Shown here: positions 13,802 to 50,286 of the stretch, piece after piece
Layout: each line of letters starts with the position of its first letter
Numbering within the stretch: position 1 is the first letter of the stretch
From: a virus
IMG/VR virus record: IMGVR_UViG_3300022752_000022
Location: 64,001 to 128,000 of that record
Length of the DNA: 64,000 nt
Reading direction: 5' to 3' (one strand)
The notes under the pieces: model-generated
Seen by the model: the letters and a program-made list of their open reading frames with translations, nothing else
The model's database searches: none
Told to the model about the DNA's origin: nothing
Position numbers and translations under genes: made by a program

Positions 13802-14439
13802 TGTCATTTTTAGTCGCAAACATACCACCAGTACATTGCTATGTAAGAAGAGAATTTCTTTATGATTTTACAAAAGGCGAAGGCGAATTTGAACCTTGCA
13901 TTTGGGTATCATTGAAATCAATTCGTGGCCAAGCATTCCGTATTGAAGCATACTTACCAAATTATGGAGCATTGTATGATAAGCTGCCACTCAATGCTTT
14001 TGTTTCCAGAACTGAGAATATAGAATGTATACCATTAGATCACTTGCAAATATGGGATTGTTTCAGTTATAATGTAGCAGTGATTCAGAAATCTTTTCTG
14101 AAAAATCTATCATGTAAATTTTTAGCTAAAGATAAACAGTGGTATCATGGCGACTATATGTTTACTGTTGACAATGCAGCACCAGATCCTAATGTTATAG
14201 ATACAACATTTAGTGAAGATCCTGAAGATCATAAGTCTTTCAACTTCATTCAATTGAATAATGGTCAATATGCAGCGCAACCAAATAATCGATGCATATT
14301 CTTTGATGCAGCGTCAAATCCAAAGGATTTAATTTTTCCAGATTTTAAAGTGTGCACCAAATTATATCGTGTAGAAACAAACCCTAAATGGGCCTTAGGA
14401 GATTCAACCGAAGTCATGTACGGAGATAAACAAGAATGA
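13801..14439 (+). CDS. Conserved phage hypothetical protein
   Basis: YGALYDKLP, LQIWDCFSY, EDHKSFN, GQYAAQPNNR motifs recurrent in aquatic phages. Confidence 0.7.
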   Translation: MSFLVANIPPVHCYVRREFLYDFTKGEGEFEPCIWVSLKSIRGQAFRIEAYLPNYGALYDKLPLNAFVSRTENIECIPLDHLQIWDCFSYNVAVIQKSFLKNLSCKFLAKDKQWYHGDYMFTVDNAAPDPNVIDTTFSEDPEDHKSFNFIQLNNGQYAAQPNNRCIFFDAASNPKDLIFPDFKVCTKLYRVETNPKWALGDSTEVMYGDKQE

Positions 14440-21540: not shown

Positions 21541-22776
21541 ATGGAAACTAAACTCGCCACAATTATTTGTTCAGATGTAATTGGATATAGTAGTCTCATG
21601 CAAGCCGATGAAATAGGAACGTTGCATAAATTAGACGCATGTAGGGCAATCATTGATCCGTTAATTACTCAATTTAAAGGCCGACTGTTTAATACGGGTG
21701 GTGATAGTGTTTTAATTGAATTTCCTAGTGCAGTTGATGCTGTTAAATTTGGTGTTGAAATGCAAGCACAAATTGGTAAATTAAATAATGGTATGCGCTG
21801 GAGAATTGGTATACATATGGGTGAAGTCTGGATTTATGGCACTAATTTAATGGGAGATGCTGTGAATCTTGCTGCAAGAACTGAAAGTTTAGCAGACTAT
21901 GGTGGTGTGACAATGACTGATACAGTTTATAAAATGATTGTAGGTAAAATGAAAACTTTAGAATTTGTAAGTCGTGGTGTACAAGAATTTAAAAATGTGA
22001 ATTCAATGGAAATCTGGAGTGTAGTAATTCCCGGCGCAACACCAAATCCATATCTAAACAAAGCACCTAAGCAAGAAACTTCAGCAGATACAATTAAAAG
22101 CCATCAAGATTTATTAAAAACTGTAATCAATGATCAAGCTGCAAGAAATAAAACACTTCATGATGCACAAACACTAAAAAGAGATGGCAAATTAGGACCA
22201 GCAACTAGAGTGTTGATGTGGCGCGTGACTAAGCAAGACAAAGCGGCCGTTGATGAATTAATTAGTCTTGGCATCAAAAATTTAATTCCTAATGAACTTA
22301 AAGTTTATGCTTCAGCAGTCATTAGAGAGTTTTGTACTAAGTTAGATAGCAATAGATTACTTACTATAGCAGACTTAATGGAAAATTGGAACTATAATTC
22401 AGCAGCACTAGATTTTGTAAAGATAGCAGCAAAAGTCGACGATAAAGCGCAGCAGAGATATGCACTTATGATATTCAATGATCCAACAAGTAGTGATGCT
22501 GAGATCAATGCCATTCTTGATGATTTAAAAGAATTAGCTATGAAAAAGAATGTTGATGCTATGATTAAACTGGGCGAATATTATACTAAAATTAATGACA
22601 AAAAGAATGCGTTCAGATGGCTCTATGCTGCGAGGGCACAACATAACAATCACGCACAAAAATTAATTGAAGAATTAAATAAAACAATCAGTAGAACTGA
22701 TTTTCAAAACTTTAAAACGGACGCAGATGCGCTCGTAGATCAAATCAAATTTATAGATGATAATTTGATGAGATGA
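21541..22776 (+). CDS. Class III adenylate/guanylate-type nucleotide cyclase with C-terminal SEL1/TPR-like region
   Basis: IICSDVIGYS, FNTGGDSVLIEF, RIGIHMGEV, GDAVNLAART motifs; AMIKLGEYY...AFRWLYAA SEL1-like repeat. Confidence 0.85.
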   Translation: METKLATIICSDVIGYSSLMQADEIGTLHKLDACRAIIDPLITQFKGRLFNTGGDSVLIEFPSAVDAVKFGVEMQAQIGKLNNGMRWRIGIHMGEVWIYGTNLMGDAVNLAARTESLADYGGVTMTDTVYKMIVGKMKTLEFVSRGVQEFKNVNSMEIWSVVIPGATPNPYLNKAPKQETSADTIKSHQDLLKTVINDQAARNKTLHDAQTLKRDGKLGPATRVLMWRVTKQDKAAVDELISLGIKNLIPNELKVYASAVIREFCTKLDSNRLLTIADLMENWNYNSAALDFVKIAAKVDDKAQQRYALMIFNDPTSSDAEINAILDDLKELAMKKNVDAMIKLGEYYTKINDKKNAFRWLYAARAQHNNHAQKLIEELNKTISRTDFQNFKTDADALVDQIKFIDDNLMR

Positions 22777-27633: not shown

Positions 27634-28011
27634 ATGGGATTAGATATGTATGCATTTTCTCTTGATGAGAAAGATGCCATTTCTGACGTTGAATATGCTG
27701 AAGAGCCGGATACTAAAACGGAAATTTTTTACTGGCGAAAGCATCACAATCTTCATGGTTGGATGAAACAACTTTATGAGAAAAAAGGTGGAACGGAAGA
27801 ATTCAATTGTGTGCCTGTCCGACTTCGGCAAAGTGATTTGTTTGAACTTCAGTCCGTGATTCTAGCGCATGGTTTGCCTGAGACTACAGGTTTTTTCTTT
27901 GGTATCAGGCCTCCTGATGAGGATTCGGATGAGCAAGATTTGTTGTTCATTGCGAAAGCATTGTCGGAAATCAATCGTGGTCGTGCAGTCTATTACTCTT
28001 CATGGTGGTAA
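27634..28011 (+). CDS. Conserved hypothetical protein (MGLDMY/YWRKH family)
   Basis: MGLDMYA, YWRKHHNLHGWM, LPETTGFFFG, YYSSWW. Confidence 0.7.
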   Translation: MGLDMYAFSLDEKDAISDVEYAEEPDTKTEIFYWRKHHNLHGWMKQLYEKKGGTEEFNCVPVRLRQSDLFELQSVILAHGLPETTGFFFGIRPPDEDSDEQDLLFIAKALSEINRGRAVYYSSWW

Positions 28012-28014
28012 AAT

Positions 28015-28329
28015 ATGGTGAATAAACTGATTCGGGATGGCAGAGTTGCTGTCCTTGTTTCTCACGGCTTCGGTGCTGGTTGGTACTCATGGCATTACGA
28101 TGAACGCCTATTATTTGAACCGACGATTGCTGAAATGTTGGAGAAGAATGTTGATATATATGAAATTGAAAAATACTGTGAAAAAACATACGGTGATGAA
28201 ATCTATTACGGTGGCTTAGATGGCCTATCAATTGTCTGGGTGCCAGTAGGAATGCAGTTTCGGATTGAAGAATATGACGGCTCAGAAAGTTTGAAGATGG
28301 AACAAGAAATGCATTGGATTACTGCGTAG
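28015..28329 (+). CDS. Conserved hypothetical protein
   Basis: VAVLVS.GFGAGWYSW, FRIEEYDGSE. Confidence 0.7.
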   Translation: MVNKLIRDGRVAVLVSHGFGAGWYSWHYDERLLFEPTIAEMLEKNVDIYEIEKYCEKTYGDEIYYGGLDGLSIVWVPVGMQFRIEEYDGSESLKMEQEMHWITA

Positions 28330-28339
28330 AGAAGTTCTT

Positions 28340-28347
28340 TATAAATA
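28340..28347 (+). promoter_or_regulatory. T4-type late promoter heading the tRNA cluster
   Basis: TATAAATA 4 nt before tRNA-Ile. Confidence 0.65.
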
Positions 28348-28351
28348 GTTT

Positions 28352-28426
28352 CCCGGATTAGCTCAGAGGTAGAGCAACGTCTTGATAAGGCGGAGGCGAA
28401 TGGATCGTTACCATTATTCGGGACCA
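28352..28426 (+). tRNA. tRNA-Ile(GAT)
   Basis: CCCGGAT/ATTCGGG acceptor, TT-GAT-AA loop, CCA; atypical T-loop ATCGTTA. Confidence 0.8.
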
Positions 28427-28507
28427 TATTGAAGCACATTTTGATGCCTATAAGCAGTCAGAGTTGATCGCCTGTCTGACGGTGTGAGATGAATGTGCTT
28501 CAATATG
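28425..28507 (+). ncRNA. Stem-bounded structured RNA cassette 1 (unknown family)
   Basis: Perfect 16-bp terminal inverted repeat CATATTGAAGCACATT/AATGTGCTTCAATATG enclosing a GTCAGA/TCTGAC hairpin. Confidence 0.5.
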
Positions 28508-28568
28508 ATAAAGGTCGAGGTGCACCAGATCATTTCTAAAGGTCACTGACACATCGGAAAGACGATGG

Positions 28569-28693
28569 CCATATTGAAGCACATTTAATCGAAAGCATCC
28601 TCAGAACGGAAGTGACTCGCCGGTGAGTATGCAGGTAGAGAGGTGTAAAAAGCCCCCGCTTGTCACGGTTACCTCAAGTGTGTTTCAATATGG
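28569..28693 (+). ncRNA. Stem-bounded structured RNA cassette 2 (unknown family)
   Basis: Same left arm CCATATTGAAGCACATTT pairs with AAGTGTGTTTCAATATGG (G-U substitutions); different GC-rich interior. Confidence 0.5.
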
Positions 28694-28700
28694 GAATTAT

Positions 28701-28776
28701 TCCGGTCGAGCAAGCTAGGTGTAGGCAGTGGACTGTTAATCCATGAAGCCTGGTTCGAATCCAGGGACCGGAGCCA
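28701..28776 (+). tRNA. tRNA-Asn(GTT)
   Basis: TCCGGTC/GACCGGA acceptor, CT-GTT-AA, TTCGAAT, GCCA. Confidence 0.85.
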
Positions 28777-28783
28777 GATGTAT

Positions 28784-28861
28784 CTCGGATTAGTTCAGCC
28801 CGGTTAGAATGCCTGCTTTGGGAGCAGGAGGTCGTGAGTTCAAATCCCACATCCGAGACCA
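28784..28861 (+). tRNA. tRNA-Pro(TGG)
   Basis: CTCGGAT/ATCCGAG, CCTGC-TTTGGGA-GCAGG, ACCA. Confidence 0.9.
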
Positions 28862-29036: not shown

Positions 29037-29600
29037 ATGCCAGCGACATGGCTTATTAGCGATACACATTTCGGGCATGACAAAACCTGTACTGTGTTCA
29101 AAAGAGACGATGGTTACCCTCTTAGGCCCTTTAAAGATGCCGAAGAGATGGACGAGGAAATGATTAAGCGTTGGAACGAACGTGTTGATAAGAATGACAA
29201 AGTATATCACTTGGGAGACGTAGTCATTGCTCGTAAAAGTCTTGCTACTCTTAGTAGACTTAACGGAGACAAAGTTCTTATTAAAGGTAACCATGATATC
29301 TTTAAACTTCATGATTACACCGTACACTTTAGAGATATCAGAGGTTATCATGTGATGTCTGGTCTTATTCTTAGTCACGTTCCAGTACATGCTGATTCCA
29401 TCGAAAGATTTGGGTGCAATGTTCATGGACATCTTCACCATAGAAGAGTGATGAAAGATAATAAGATTGATCCGAGATACTTTAATGTGAGTGTAGAGTG
29501 TATCGACTTTGCTCCTATTCTTCTTGAAGATCTGAAGAAAAGAATTATGGAGCAGGGTGGGGGTGTCGAGATGAAAAAGTCTCGACACGAAGTAGATTAG
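29037..29600 (+). CDS. Calcineurin-like metallophosphoesterase
   Basis: SDTHFGH, HLGDV, KGNHD, SHVP, NVHGHLH. Confidence 0.88.
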   Translation: MPATWLISDTHFGHDKTCTVFKRDDGYPLRPFKDAEEMDEEMIKRWNERVDKNDKVYHLGDVVIARKSLATLSRLNGDKVLIKGNHDIFKLHDYTVHFRDIRGYHVMSGLILSHVPVHADSIERFGCNVHGHLHHRRVMKDNKIDPRYFNVSVECIDFAPILLEDLKKRIMEQGGGVEMKKSRHEVD

Positions 29601-29675
29601 CTGATGTAGATCAGTGGTAGATCGCTTTCTTGGTAAGAAAGAAGTCATGAGTTCGATTCTGTCAAGAGGTTACCA
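29600..29675 (+). pseudogene. Chimeric pseudo-tRNA-Thr(GGT)
   Basis: D arm and CTTTC-TTGGTAA-GAAAG anticodon arm are intact, but acceptor (GCTGATG vs AGAGGTT) and T stem do not pair. Confidence 0.65.
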
Positions 29676-29688
29676 AAAAGGAGTTTGT

Positions 29689-30225
29689 ATGAGACTTACT
29701 GATTTAATTAAAATATATGATAATGTTTTGAGTAAAGACTCTTGCAATAATATCATTGGGGAGTTTGAAGCAAGAAAAGAATTGGTAGATCATCATCATA
29801 ATGATGTTTACAAATTTGATCAATTAAACTTAAATCAGACTGATCTAAAACCTTTAGCGACAATTTTCATAAGGCAAATTATTCCGCTCATTAAATATTA
29901 TTCAGCGGAATTCAATGTTGATCGATTCATTAAAATGAATGCTTTTGAAGATGTTAGAATTAAAAAATACTTGAAGAATTCTGACTATCAATTTAAAACA
30001 CATATCGATAGTGCCGATAAAGAGTCTGCGGTACGATATTTGGTTTTCATTTTGTATTTGAATGATAACAACGGCAACACATTTTTTCCAACACTTGATT
30101 ACTCATGTAGACCAAAACAAGGAAGCATGATTTTGTTTCCACCTTTTTGGATGTATCCACATTCTGGTGTGATACCTACAGATAATGATAAGTATATTAT
30201 GATGAGCGCATTACATCATACATAA
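29689..30225 (+). CDS. 2OG-Fe(II) oxygenase (prolyl-hydroxylase-like)
   Basis: HID, LYLND, FPPFWMYPHSG, KYI; AAGGAG RBS before ATG 29689. Confidence 0.85.
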   Translation: MRLTDLIKIYDNVLSKDSCNNIIGEFEARKELVDHHHNDVYKFDQLNLNQTDLKPLATIFIRQIIPLIKYYSAEFNVDRFIKMNAFEDVRIKKYLKNSDYQFKTHIDSADKESAVRYLVFILYLNDNNGNTFFPTLDYSCRPKQGSMILFPPFWMYPHSGVIPTDNDKYIMMSALHHT

Positions 30226-44743: not shown

Positions 44744-45093
44744 GTCAACAAATGGTTCACGATGTAGTAAGGTTTATTCAAGCGTGTGAGCAACTTCGCA
44801 CACCTAAAAATATAGAATTGTATGATAAACTAATTCATGAGGAATTTGAAGAATACATAGATGCAAAGAATGACGCAGAGAAATTGGATGCATGTATGGA
44901 CATGATTTGGGTGATTATTGGTTATTGTCATATGAAAGGTTGGAATGTAGAACGTGCATGGGAAGAAGTTGCAAGAAGTAATTTAGATAAGATTGATCCT
45001 GATACAGGATATGTTCTAAAAAATTCTGATGGTAAAGTGATGAAACCTAAGCATTGGAAAGCACCTGCACTTGAACAATTTGTTGAAGCATGA
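44740..45093 (+). CDS. MazG/PRA-PH-like NTP pyrophosphohydrolase
   Basis: LI.EEF.E...LDA..D...EV.RSN..K...DGKV.KP. Confidence 0.78.
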   Translation: MSQQMVHDVVRFIQACEQLRTPKNIELYDKLIHEEFEEYIDAKNDAEKLDACMDMIWVIIGYCHMKGWNVERAWEEVARSNLDKIDPDTGYVLKNSDGKVMKPKHWKAPALEQFVEA

Positions 45094-45112
45094 TATAATC
45101 ACTAAATAAAAT

Positions 45113-45462
45113 ATTGTTGTATGAAGTTGAAGGAAACATGTTGCGGACGGCGGTTCAAATCCGCCCAGGTCCACCAAAAGCATGGCAGCGAAAGACGCCT
45201 AACCAGCGACCCTACCTACAAGGGAGAATACGGTGAATGATCAATTGTTGTGGTGACGATTGTATGTGTTCACGCCGCAGTAGGATGCTTTTGATGGGCC
45301 TGTACTGGTTTCGACGGAGCAAAGAGTACGGAAATGGACAACACGACAGGCGAAGGACGTAATCCTAGCAAAACGTTAAACGCAAACGACGAAAGATTTG
45401 CATTAGCCGCCTAAACACGGCTTAGGGTTTCGGTGAGTTTCCTCGTAACAGAATAACTCACC
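45113..45462 (+). ncRNA. ssrA: Circularly permuted (two-piece) tmRNA with intervening segment
   Basis: The 3' acceptor piece (GGCGG-TTCAAAT-CCGCC-CAGGTCC-ACCA, ending 45176) precedes the 5' piece (GGGCCTG...GGTTTCGAC, from 45296). G3:U70 pair present. Tag ANDERFALAA* at 45382-45414. Outer ends approximate. Confidence 0.9.
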
Positions 45463-45493
45463 ACACACTCACACACATTTAAAGGAGACTATT

Positions 45494-45730
45494 ATGAGTG
45501 ATACGGCGTTTGGTATACGATTAGAAATTCTCAAAATGGCAAAAGATATAGTTGATCATGACTATTTTACAATGAGAGATTTTGAACAACAAATTTGGAA
45601 TACTAAAGCAGATGATGCTAGAGCAAAAGGCAAAGAAATACCACCATTTACTTTTACACCATATCCATCTGTTGATACTATCATAGCAAAAGCAAAAGAA
45701 CTTAATCGTTTTATTAGTGAAAGACAGTGA
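45494..45730 (+). CDS. Small conserved protein
   Basis: [10 protein letters not shown]...P.YP....II.KA..L..F; AAGGAG RBS. Confidence 0.65.
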
Positions 45731-49357: not shown

Positions 49358-50286
49358 AAGTTCTTATCATCAATGGACCAAAAGAAAAGTGTGGAATTTA
49401 TCAATACTCACAATCATTATATGATGCATTATCATCTGTAAAATCAAAATATCAGTATGAATTTTTTCCAACAGGAAGTAGAGATGAAGCTAAAAATAGA
49501 ATTGCTGCGGAAGATATTCATGCTGTAATATACAACCATCATCCAATGGCACTCGAATGGTTAGACTCAGGATTTACGAGACCGATTAAAAACGATTTCG
49601 GTATAAAACAAATTATGATCACAGGCCATGAACACGAAACACGATACATTGGCGTTGATCAATACGTTTACACTGATCCAAATCATCCAACAAAAGATAA
49701 TGTACATTCTGGAATGCCACCATTACTTTATTATGATGACATTCAATACACTGCGCCGCAATCTGATGTTATTAAGATTGGAACAAGTGGTATCGGCAAT
49801 TCAACTAAAAATTTACATGAACTTGTTGAAAAAGTAAATAAAGATTTCGCTAATGAAAATGTGTTATTAAATGTCCATATTACAGATGGAGCTTATGTAG
49901 ATTCTACAGGCAAATTTTCAAATATGTTAGGTAACATATGTAAAGAAATCGCCGCTGAAAATGTCGAAGTGAATATTGTGCGTGAATTCTTTACAAAAAG
50001 AAATCTTGTTCAATGGCTTAATATCAACGATATCAACATTTATTACCATACTGTAGGTCCTCCGCTCGGTGTGAGTAGTTCTATAGACAGGGCAATTGAA
50101 TCAAAAAAACCTTTTGGTATAAACGAATCAAACTTTTTTAAACATGTAATTAGAGATTACAATAATTTAAACAAAACAAGCATCAAAGAAATTCTTGCGA
50201 TTGGCATTGATCCGTACAAAGAATTTTATGACGCATGGAATCCAGTAAAATTGGTAGAATTATACGAGAAAATTATTGGCGAATAA
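49354..50286 (+). CDS. Glycosyltransferase-like protein
   Basis: CGIYQY, G.SS.ID.AI..KKP GT-B-like motifs. Confidence 0.5.
   Translation: MKVLIINGPKEKCGIYQYSQSLYDALSSVKSKYQYEFFPTGSRDEAKNRIAAEDIHAVIYNHHPMALEWLDSGFTRPIKNDFGIKQIMITGHEHETRYIGVDQYVYTDPNHPTKDNVHSGMPPLLYYDDIQYTAPQSDVIKIGTSGIGNSTKNLHELVEKVNKDFANENVLLNVHITDGAYVDSTGKFSNMLGNICKEIAAENVEVNIVREFFTKRNLVQWLNINDINIYYHTVGPPLGVSSSIDRAIESKKPFGINESNFFKHVIRDYNNLNKTSIKEILAIGIDPYKEFYDAWNPVKLVELYEKIIGE

Follow-up and report, generated by a model that had tools for sequence, protein, structure and literature searches.

A phage RNA family of modular cassettes with one closing stem and diverse interiors in tRNA arrays

The stretch analysed here, referred to as the window, is a 64-kb segment of IMG/VR record IMGVR_UViG_3300022752_000022, a complete 149.6-kb phage record with terminal repeats. 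The record derives from an uncultured freshwater phage, the DNA of which is present in lake and other freshwater metagenomes. Immediately downstream of the first gene of its tRNA array, the window carries two small cassettes that are closed by the same stem and enclose different interiors, called cargos below. Stems of the same type close many other cargos in the tRNA arrays of other phages. The cassettes belong to a real and widespread RNA family, restricted to phages, which is found neither in Rfam nor in the GenBank phage records and is undescribed in the literature that we searched.

Organization of the cassette locus

The features of the locus are listed in Table 1; the four arms are numbered in the order in which they occur. 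Both 5′ arms consist of the same 18-mer, CCATATTGAAGCACATTT, and match the family consensus CCAUAUUGAAGCACAUU at 17 of 17 positions. Since tRNA-Ile ends at 28426, its encoded CCA (28424–28426) makes up the first three bases of arm 1. A perfect complement of arm 1 (16/16) is located at 28492–28507. All pairs between the cassette-1 arms are of the Watson-Crick type from C28425 on, and the first C of the CCA lies opposite an A. The complement of arm 3 spans 18 nt (28676–28693) and is 89% Watson-Crick, the two exceptions being G-U and U-G pairs on the + strand. These are the consensus wobbles of the family, G-U at position 11 and U-G at position 16; the Watson-Crick pairs found at the same positions in cassette 1 are the minority state (G-C in 71/289 and U-A in 17/289 distinct arm pairs). 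As the arms are repeated, the full 277-nt region has an alternative fold, in which arms 1 and 4 form one stem and arms 2 and 3 another.

A search for a 15-mer of the arm with up to 2 mismatches returned only these four sites in the window. The other 13 window matches to the 15-mer carry 2–3 mismatches, and in shuffled sequences 6.15 hits with no more than 3 mismatches were counted on average. Two further sites resemble the 5′ arm, with 3 mismatches each, at window positions 13938–13954 and genome positions 49806–49822. Neither has a partner arm or lies in a tRNA array, and both matches are probably due to chance.

The interiors, 52 and 91 nt in length, are mutually unrelated and have a G+C content of 48% and 51%, respectively, compared with 36.8% for the window. 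Cassette 1 folds with a free energy of −33.5 kcal/mol (z −4.96 relative to shuffles) and cassette 2 with −45.0 kcal/mol (z −4.52). The spacer between the cassettes, which is weakly folded when taken alone (z −1.75) and has no homologue among the collected loci, terminates with a hairpin in which CATCG (28552–28556) and CGATG (28563–28567) flank GAAAGA. The hairpin is followed by G28568 and by the CCA that opens arm 3 (28569–28571), and this arrangement mimics a tRNA acceptor end (helix-N-CCA). Cassette 1 opens on the CCA of tRNA-Ile and cassette 2 on the CCA of this mimic, both on the same strand as the tRNAs.

Neither a tRNA nor a known RNA family was detected within the cassettes by ARAGORN and Rfam, the latter run on 28300–28800 even at E-values up to 10, and the only open reading frames (ORFs) of the region encode 31–44 amino acids. 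No terminator-like site is present at 28424–28700, the 3′ arms being followed by AUAAAGG and GAAUUAU rather than by U runs. ORFs next to the array, at 27634–28329, have no Pfam or PHROG match. An earlier note, made from the letters of the window alone, had described the repeated arms, their complements with the G-U exceptions and the spacer hairpin ending in CCA, and all of these coordinates proved correct. Its account of the interiors as unrelated, GC-rich and structured, and as neither tRNAs nor credible ORFs, likewise stands.

Table 1 Features of the cassette locus in the window
Feature	Position	Strand	Basis
tRNA-Ile(GAU), first tRNA of the array	28352–28426	+	ARAGORN; Rfam tRNA, 47.9 bits
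5′ arm of cassette 1 (CCAUAUUGAAGCACAUUU)	28424–28441	+	Exact match to family consensus
Cargo 1, small hairpin RNA with invariant loop GAGUUGAUCGCCU and invariant junction strands	28442–28490	+	Homologues; alignment A3; RNAalifold
3′ arm of cassette 1 (AAUGUGCUUCAAUAUGA)	28491–28508	+	16-nt complement, 100%
Spacer RNA with terminal hairpin (28552–28567) and G28568	28509–28568	+	Sequence; fold
5′ arm of cassette 2	28569–28586	+	100% identical to arm 1
Cargo 2, three-way-junction RNA; P2 at about 28595–28632, P3 at about 28633–28674	28587–28675	+	Alignment A1; RNAalifold
3′ arm of cassette 2 (AAGUGUGUUUCAAUAUGG)	28676–28693	+	Fold; arm comparison
tRNA-Asn(GUU), 7 nt past the cassette-2 stem	28701–28776	+	ARAGORN

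Distribution, pairing and cargo content of the family

The consensus stem of the family is CCAUAUUGAAGCACAUU / AGUGUGUUUCAAUAUGG. Scans of IMG/VR returned at least 118 contigs with a 14-mer of the arm and at least 120 viral contigs with a paired-arm pattern, and relatives collected through the phosphoesterase gene that adjoins the locus bear cassettes as well. A strand-neutral family scan combining a regular expression with a pairing requirement was run on 318 loci (2.75 Mb). It identified 390 stem sites, distributed over 167 IMG/VR phage loci that carry between 1 and 10 sites each; 380 of the 390 lie within 1.5 kb of a tRNA. Complete genomes carry 1–4 cassettes each, none of which is outside a tRNA array. 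The presence of the stem pair in related genomes, on which the earlier note had made its proposal depend, is thus established for many of them.

Outside the viral data, the paired-arm pattern with full arms gave no match in 185,579 prokaryote genomes. Three prokaryote matches obtained with trimmed arms are unrelated perfect palindromes and not cassettes. No cassette was found in 50,697 GenBank phage records, in which a blastn search with the region matched tRNAs only; the single one-arm match, in MT835532, lacks both a partner arm and a tRNA and is due to chance. Rfam, which the earlier note had named as a check, was applied to the window and to 17 relative loci, with gathering thresholds as well as E-value cut-offs, and assigned no family to the cassettes. 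Full-text literature searches retrieved no description of this element.

The only Rfam matches in the window and the 17 relative loci were tRNAs, tmRNA, one GOLLD RNA and one group I intron. The GOLLD RNA (205.7 bits, with an embedded tRNA, L159 7002–7465) and the group I intron (53.4 bits, L060 13185–13378) both reside in the tRNA arrays of relatives, which are dense in non-coding RNAs. Another, unannotated RNA of these arrays is a conserved 122-nt spacer between tandem cassettes (L120 1600–1721, L121 1619–1740, L125 3191–3312 and L046 8562–8683), in which a terminal hairpin and AA precede the next CCA.

Anchoring on tRNA ends is a recurrent trait. Nearly half of the non-redundant cassettes (148/303) open on the encoded CCA of a tRNA called by ARAGORN, and in 86/303 a tRNA starts between −3 and +12 nt past the 3′ arm. 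Where no tRNA precedes the cassette, a helix-N-CCA arrangement is found upstream in 29% of cases, compared with 13% at random places. The free base between the upstream helix and CCA is an A in 100 of 155 instances. The remaining tRNAs of these arrays are spaced by 5–8 nt, with no hairpin between them.

The closing stem is 17–19 bp long. In the set of 289 distinct arm pairs, the helix spans from the base before CCA (A-U in 170) to position 18. Compensatory alternatives are observed at several positions: UA in 260 and AU in 26 arm pairs at position 7, CG in 248 and UA in 28 at position 12, and CG in 243 and UA in 24 at position 14. Position 11 alternates among G-U (119), A-U (94) and G-C (71), and position 16 is a U-G wobble in 229 arm pairs (79%). 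Arms pair at 16.72 of 17 positions with their own partners and at 15.72 with randomly dealt partners (sd 0.025, maximum 15.81), and sliding the partner arm abolishes pairing. The relative L124 has a stem that is diverged yet complementary (CCATATTAGAGCAC/GTGCTCTAATATGG). Own-partner pairing, the compensatory changes and L124 together indicate that pairing spans the interior and does not involve the adjoining tRNA.

The pairs are also asymmetric with respect to strand. With the orientation of each cassette assigned solely by the nearest tRNA, the arm pairs on the tRNA strand feature 553 G-U pairs versus 59 A-C mismatches, and G-U pairs outnumber A-C mismatches in 305 cassettes, while the reverse holds in 15. 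As far as arm comparisons go, these data show that selection maintains the stem as a fold of a single strand, the tRNA-sense strand; they agree with the earlier note, in which the G-U pairs were taken to favour RNA-level selection.

In sharp contrast to the stem, the interiors vary extensively. The 289 unique interiors measure 25 to 135 nt (median 51), and no cassette has an interior of less than 20 nt. They group into 172 clusters, between which no similarity was detected. A standard stem that carries interchangeable small RNAs within a tRNA transcription unit, as the earlier note had proposed from two examples, is what this diversity of interiors on one stem amounts to. The commonest 6-mer of the interiors, GTTCGA, occurs in 19 clusters. 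A T-arm-like hairpin is present in 13 of the 172 clusters versus 2 in a reversed-sequence control, and in 9 of these 13 clusters no more than 4 nt separate the hairpin from the 3′ arm, an arrangement like that of tRNA. Neither window cargo has such a hairpin.

Both window cargos have homologues. Homologues of cargo 1, 75–84% identical, are found behind tRNA-Gln in L243, behind tRNA-Glu in L322, in L231, and within the tandem cassette arrays of L251/L259. In alignment A3, RNAalifold identified 5 pairs that are changed on both sides around an invariant loop. Cargo 2 is present in 13 further IMG/VR loci, where it follows at least four other tRNAs. In the corresponding alignment (A1), 6 pairs of the P2 hairpin are preserved through changes on both sides, while P3 is an almost invariant 40-nt domain. 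The sense strand carries G-U pairs inside both cargos. These alignments place each window cargo in a conserved family, in which hairpins covary and loops are invariant. GAUGA and CGAA motifs noted by eye in one cargo family were considered as a possible hammerhead or k-turn; the helices and the strand order do not fit, and Rfam is silent.

Cassette content varies even among close relatives. The closest ones carry cassettes behind the same first tRNA, Ile-GAU, with different contents: cassettes measure 67, 94 and 71 nt in L120 and 67, 118 and 71 nt in L121, the single lengths in L122 and L123 are 118 and 102 nt, and L124 has only the one cassette with a diverged stem. Between tRNA-Ile and tRNA-Asn, L209 differs little from the window but lacks exactly 145 nt, corresponding to cassette 1 and the spacer. 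The 18-nt arm repeat delimits this indel, and cargo 2 is located directly behind tRNA-Ile in L209. Such comparisons between loci show modular gain or loss of cassettes. Of the 6 remaining differences between the window and L209, 5 map to the tip of P2 (28608–28622) and are compensatory (GG/CC to AA/UU), which suggests, for this pair of loci, that the exposed hairpin of cargo 2 undergoes fast, structure-preserving change.

Cargo 2 was also detected in river metatranscriptome contigs from four studies, with 11 differences in 129 nt (about 91% identity). The flanks of these contigs match L210 and not the window, and homology stops at the cassette borders. One such contig features the same arms around the cargo of the 71-nt cassette of L120/L121. 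These are Logan assembled contigs, and as such document presence in RNA libraries, not ends, strand, abundance or transcription; the parts of the stretch that they leave uncovered are not informative.

Release, function and alternative explanations

We favour, at a probability of roughly 60%, the reading that the two window cassettes belong to a large family, confined to phages, of modular small-RNA cassettes in tRNA operons that are excised by host tRNA-processing enzymes and act by shape. The cassettes would be co-transcribed with the tRNAs as one precursor. Their 5′ border would be set by maturation of the upstream CCA end, and their 3′ border by RNase P at the next tRNA, for instance tRNA-Asn. 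A 19-bp hairpin would block exonucleolytic trimming of the upstream tRNA, and an endonucleolytic cut at or in the stem consequently seems necessary; a host double-strand-specific nuclease, such as RNase III, may make it. Breathing of the tRNA ends would be permitted by the A/U-rich base of the stem (8 of its first 10 pairs). The stem may stabilise the cargo in the manner of a uniform clamp or handle. The cargos may be independent, stable structured effectors that bind a host or phage factor through their shape and do not base-pair with a target. The gain, loss and swapping of cassettes among phages could result from recombination in the shared arms.

Several points weigh against this reading. 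Interiors folded without their arms surpass shuffles by a modest margin only (mean z −0.44, t-test P ~1e-7). The stem, at 18–19 bp, is slightly short for a classical two-turn RNase III substrate, although stacking on the cargo helices may extend it. No RNase III, Rsr or RtcB gene was found in the window phage (G000), and no RNase III or Rsr gene in three other complete cassette-bearing phages (G002–G004, 214–400 kb); any such enzyme would therefore have to be supplied by the host. The G-T wobble asymmetry would equally suit folding of single-stranded DNA. The assembled metatranscriptome contigs could reflect DNA carry-over. Moreover, a simple clamp leaves the near-invariant sequence of the stem unexplained, which suggests either sequence-specific recognition or very recent horizontal spread.

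The four complete genomes share 32 ORFs, which were examined for a phage-encoded partner. As far as they are annotated, these are distantly T4-like genes of replication, nucleotide metabolism and lysis, including ThyX, ribonucleotide reductase, gp32, RNase H-like and other nucleases, lysis enzymes and a phosphoesterase. No evident RNA-binding specificity factor is present among their annotated members. As no phage-encoded partner was found, a sequence-specific partner would most likely be a host factor; otherwise, the stem may be maintained by recent spread and recombination in the arms.

The phosphoesterase is calcineurin-like (PHROG 547) and is encoded inside the tRNA array, at 29037–29600. 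Identity to its counterparts in the three other complete phages is 58–68%, whereas the remaining proteins that these phages share with the window phage are mostly 25–35% identical. This unusually conserved, array-linked enzyme is possibly involved in RNA-end healing. Just downstream, at 29600–29670, a weak tRNA match (Rfam, 32.8 bits) that ARAGORN does not call overlaps the start of a 2OG-Fe(II) oxygenase ORF (29614–30225). It shares the 15-mer AGTTCGATTCTGTCA with tRNA-Thr and is possibly a decayed tRNA copy. Elsewhere in the window, a 411-residue ORF (21541–22776) features an adenylate/guanylate cyclase catalytic domain (PF00211, E 3.4e-9).

As to what the cargos do, a tentative and rather doubtful proposal is that the cassettes constitute a horizontally exchanged library of aptamer-like or decoy RNA effectors, mounted on a common nuclease-resistant handle and expressed at tRNA level, which neutralise host factors. 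Freshwater T4-like phages might use such a library to counter defence proteins or tRNA-targeting nucleases. An effector library would explain the diversity of the cargos, their turnover between near-identical phages and the local compensatory change in exposed hairpins.

Other explanations assign the stem or the interior a different part. Cassettes might be Y RNA-like ribonucleoprotein handles, as in Rsr/YrlA particles, in which the constant stem binds one protein and the variable module recruits or inhibits partners. A stem that is far more constant than pairing requires, and that retains the U-G wobble in most arm pairs, fits this model, as does the T-arm-like hairpin close to the 3′ arm in a minority of clusters, which reproduces the tRNA-like topology of YrlA. 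We nonetheless consider it unlikely, because Rfam reports no Y_RNA or YrlA match in the window at E-values up to 10 or in six relative loci at E-values up to 1, the window cargos have no T-loop, and the annotated proteins common to the four genomes include no obvious RNA-binding candidate. TROVE/Rsr (PF05731) is absent from all four, although a copy may be present in the host.

It is less probable still that the cassettes are selfish or neutral DNA, that is, small inverted-repeat elements inserting at tRNA CCA ends, or a recombination hot spot there, with the interior as a passenger. Terminal inverted repeats, the occurrence of the same cassette within differing flanks, the precise indel delimited by the arm repeat in L209 and the different cassette content of close relatives are all traits of such elements. 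However, the cassettes are not dispersed in a manner reminiscent of miniature inverted-repeat elements, given their low copy number in complete genomes and their confinement to tRNA arrays. Passenger DNA is also at odds with a strong strand asymmetry that tracks the tRNA strand, with covarying cargo stems and invariant loops, and with the lack of empty stems. No transposase, reverse transcriptase or adjacent homing endonuclease was found, the search for a reverse transcriptase covering the genome of the window phage; the closest HNH gene lies at a distance of about 37 kb, and the only GIY-YIG match, at about 10 kb, is sub-threshold.

Similarly poor prospects attach to the notion that the stems are pure processing or insulator hairpins, which merely separate or fold adjoining tRNAs and leave the interior as an unconstrained loop. 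The tight fit to tRNA ends, the extreme diversity of the interiors and the weak scores of interior-only folds are compatible with this notion, yet most tRNAs in the same arrays follow each other closely without a hairpin, and cassettes are also found in tandem, away from any tRNA. An unconstrained loop, in addition, would not be expected to yield cargo families that are conserved across phages and flanks, with compensatory changes and invariant loops, nor a minimum interior length.

A guide function, one of the roles the earlier note had envisaged, with an RNA-guided effector scaffolded by the stem and directed to its target by the interior, is extremely improbable: phages are known to hold RNA-guided systems and the constant-plus-variable layout recalls them, but the interiors vary widely in length and are compact, structurally conserved folds, the cargos and the spacer have only chance-level antisense complementarity (≤12 nt) to the phage genome, and no candidate effector gene is linked. 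Taken as a whole, the interpretation of the earlier note is partly supported.

Comparison with known systems

RNase III stalks, such as the stems of pre-16S and pre-23S rRNA and the early sites of phage T7, are flanking duplexes that join the ends of an RNA and lead to its excision from a polycistronic precursor that contains tRNAs. Intervening sequences of 23S rRNA, which are also excised by RNase III, have a conserved stem and variable interiors. The cassettes share the excision logic of both, if cleavage occurs as proposed. The cassette stem differs in being 18–19 bp long, of fixed sequence and anchored on the CCA end of a tRNA; moreover, the window phage and its three complete relatives have no RNase III gene of their own. 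YrlA, the RNA partner of Rsr, resembles the cassettes in combining a long closing stem with a variable module. In a minority of cassettes this module is similar to tRNA, having a T-arm next to the 3′ strand of the stem. The differences lie in the absence of an Rfam match and of a TROVE gene, and in the fact that most cargos, including both in the window, are not tRNA-like.

Within the window itself, a partial analogy is provided by a permuted two-piece tmRNA (45069–45505, tag EGRNPSKTLNANDERFALAA). This tmRNA is of the betaproteobacterial type and gives a hint as to the host. Its intervening segment (45178–45294) opens, as a cassette does, right after the CCA of the acceptor piece, is closed by a stem of its own and ends at the 5′ GGG of the coding piece, from which it has to be cut away. 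However, the stem differs in sequence from that of the cassettes and is only 9 bp long (CAAAAGCAU/AUGCUUUUG), the segment folds no better than shuffles (z −0.63), and there is one segment per gene, with no cargo families.

Small RNAs located directly behind a tRNA or a tRNA-like element and released by tRNA processing are exemplified by the tRNA-miRNA encoded RNAs of murine gammaherpesvirus 68 and by bacterial 3′ETS-leuZ. The hairpin RNAs of the herpesvirus depend on a eukaryotic Pol III, tRNase Z and Dicer pathway, and 3′ETS-leuZ is a single unstructured sponge RNA. Neither features a common stem with many cargos.

The closest setting is that of the stable RNAs of phages T5 and T4, which include rnaIII, rnaI, rna1, rnaIV and rna2 of T5 (AY543070, annotated as “stable RNA with unknown functions”) and rnaC and rnaD of T4 (the species 1 and 2 RNAs; NC_000866). 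Like the cassettes, these are small non-tRNA RNAs of a phage tRNA cluster, encoded on the same strand as the tRNAs and directly adjacent to tRNAs or to one another. RNAIII, RNAIV and RNA2 of T5 have closing stems in their folds, which at 8–12 bp are shorter than the cassette stem. RNA2 of T5 and rnaC of T4 have a T-arm near the closing stem and in this respect resemble a minority of the cassettes. In contrast, the T4 and T5 RNAs have no stem sequence in common among themselves and no sequence match to the window. Folds and annotation provide no indication that they start on an upstream CCA, and nothing points to cargos being exchanged on a fixed stem.

Should the cargos indeed bind proteins or counter defence, they would represent a new and widespread RNA layer in the conflict between phages and their hosts, and the stem would be a natural scaffold for the expression of structured RNAs in bacteria. 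The covarying cargo families can be synthesised and tested, and anchoring on CCA is a clear structural rule that predicts how the RNAs are released. To our knowledge, small stable RNAs of phage tRNA clusters have been known since T4 and T5, and their function has never been explained. To this question the cassette family offers a comparative handle, namely hundreds of “experiments” set up by nature, with different conserved folds mounted on a single fixed stem.

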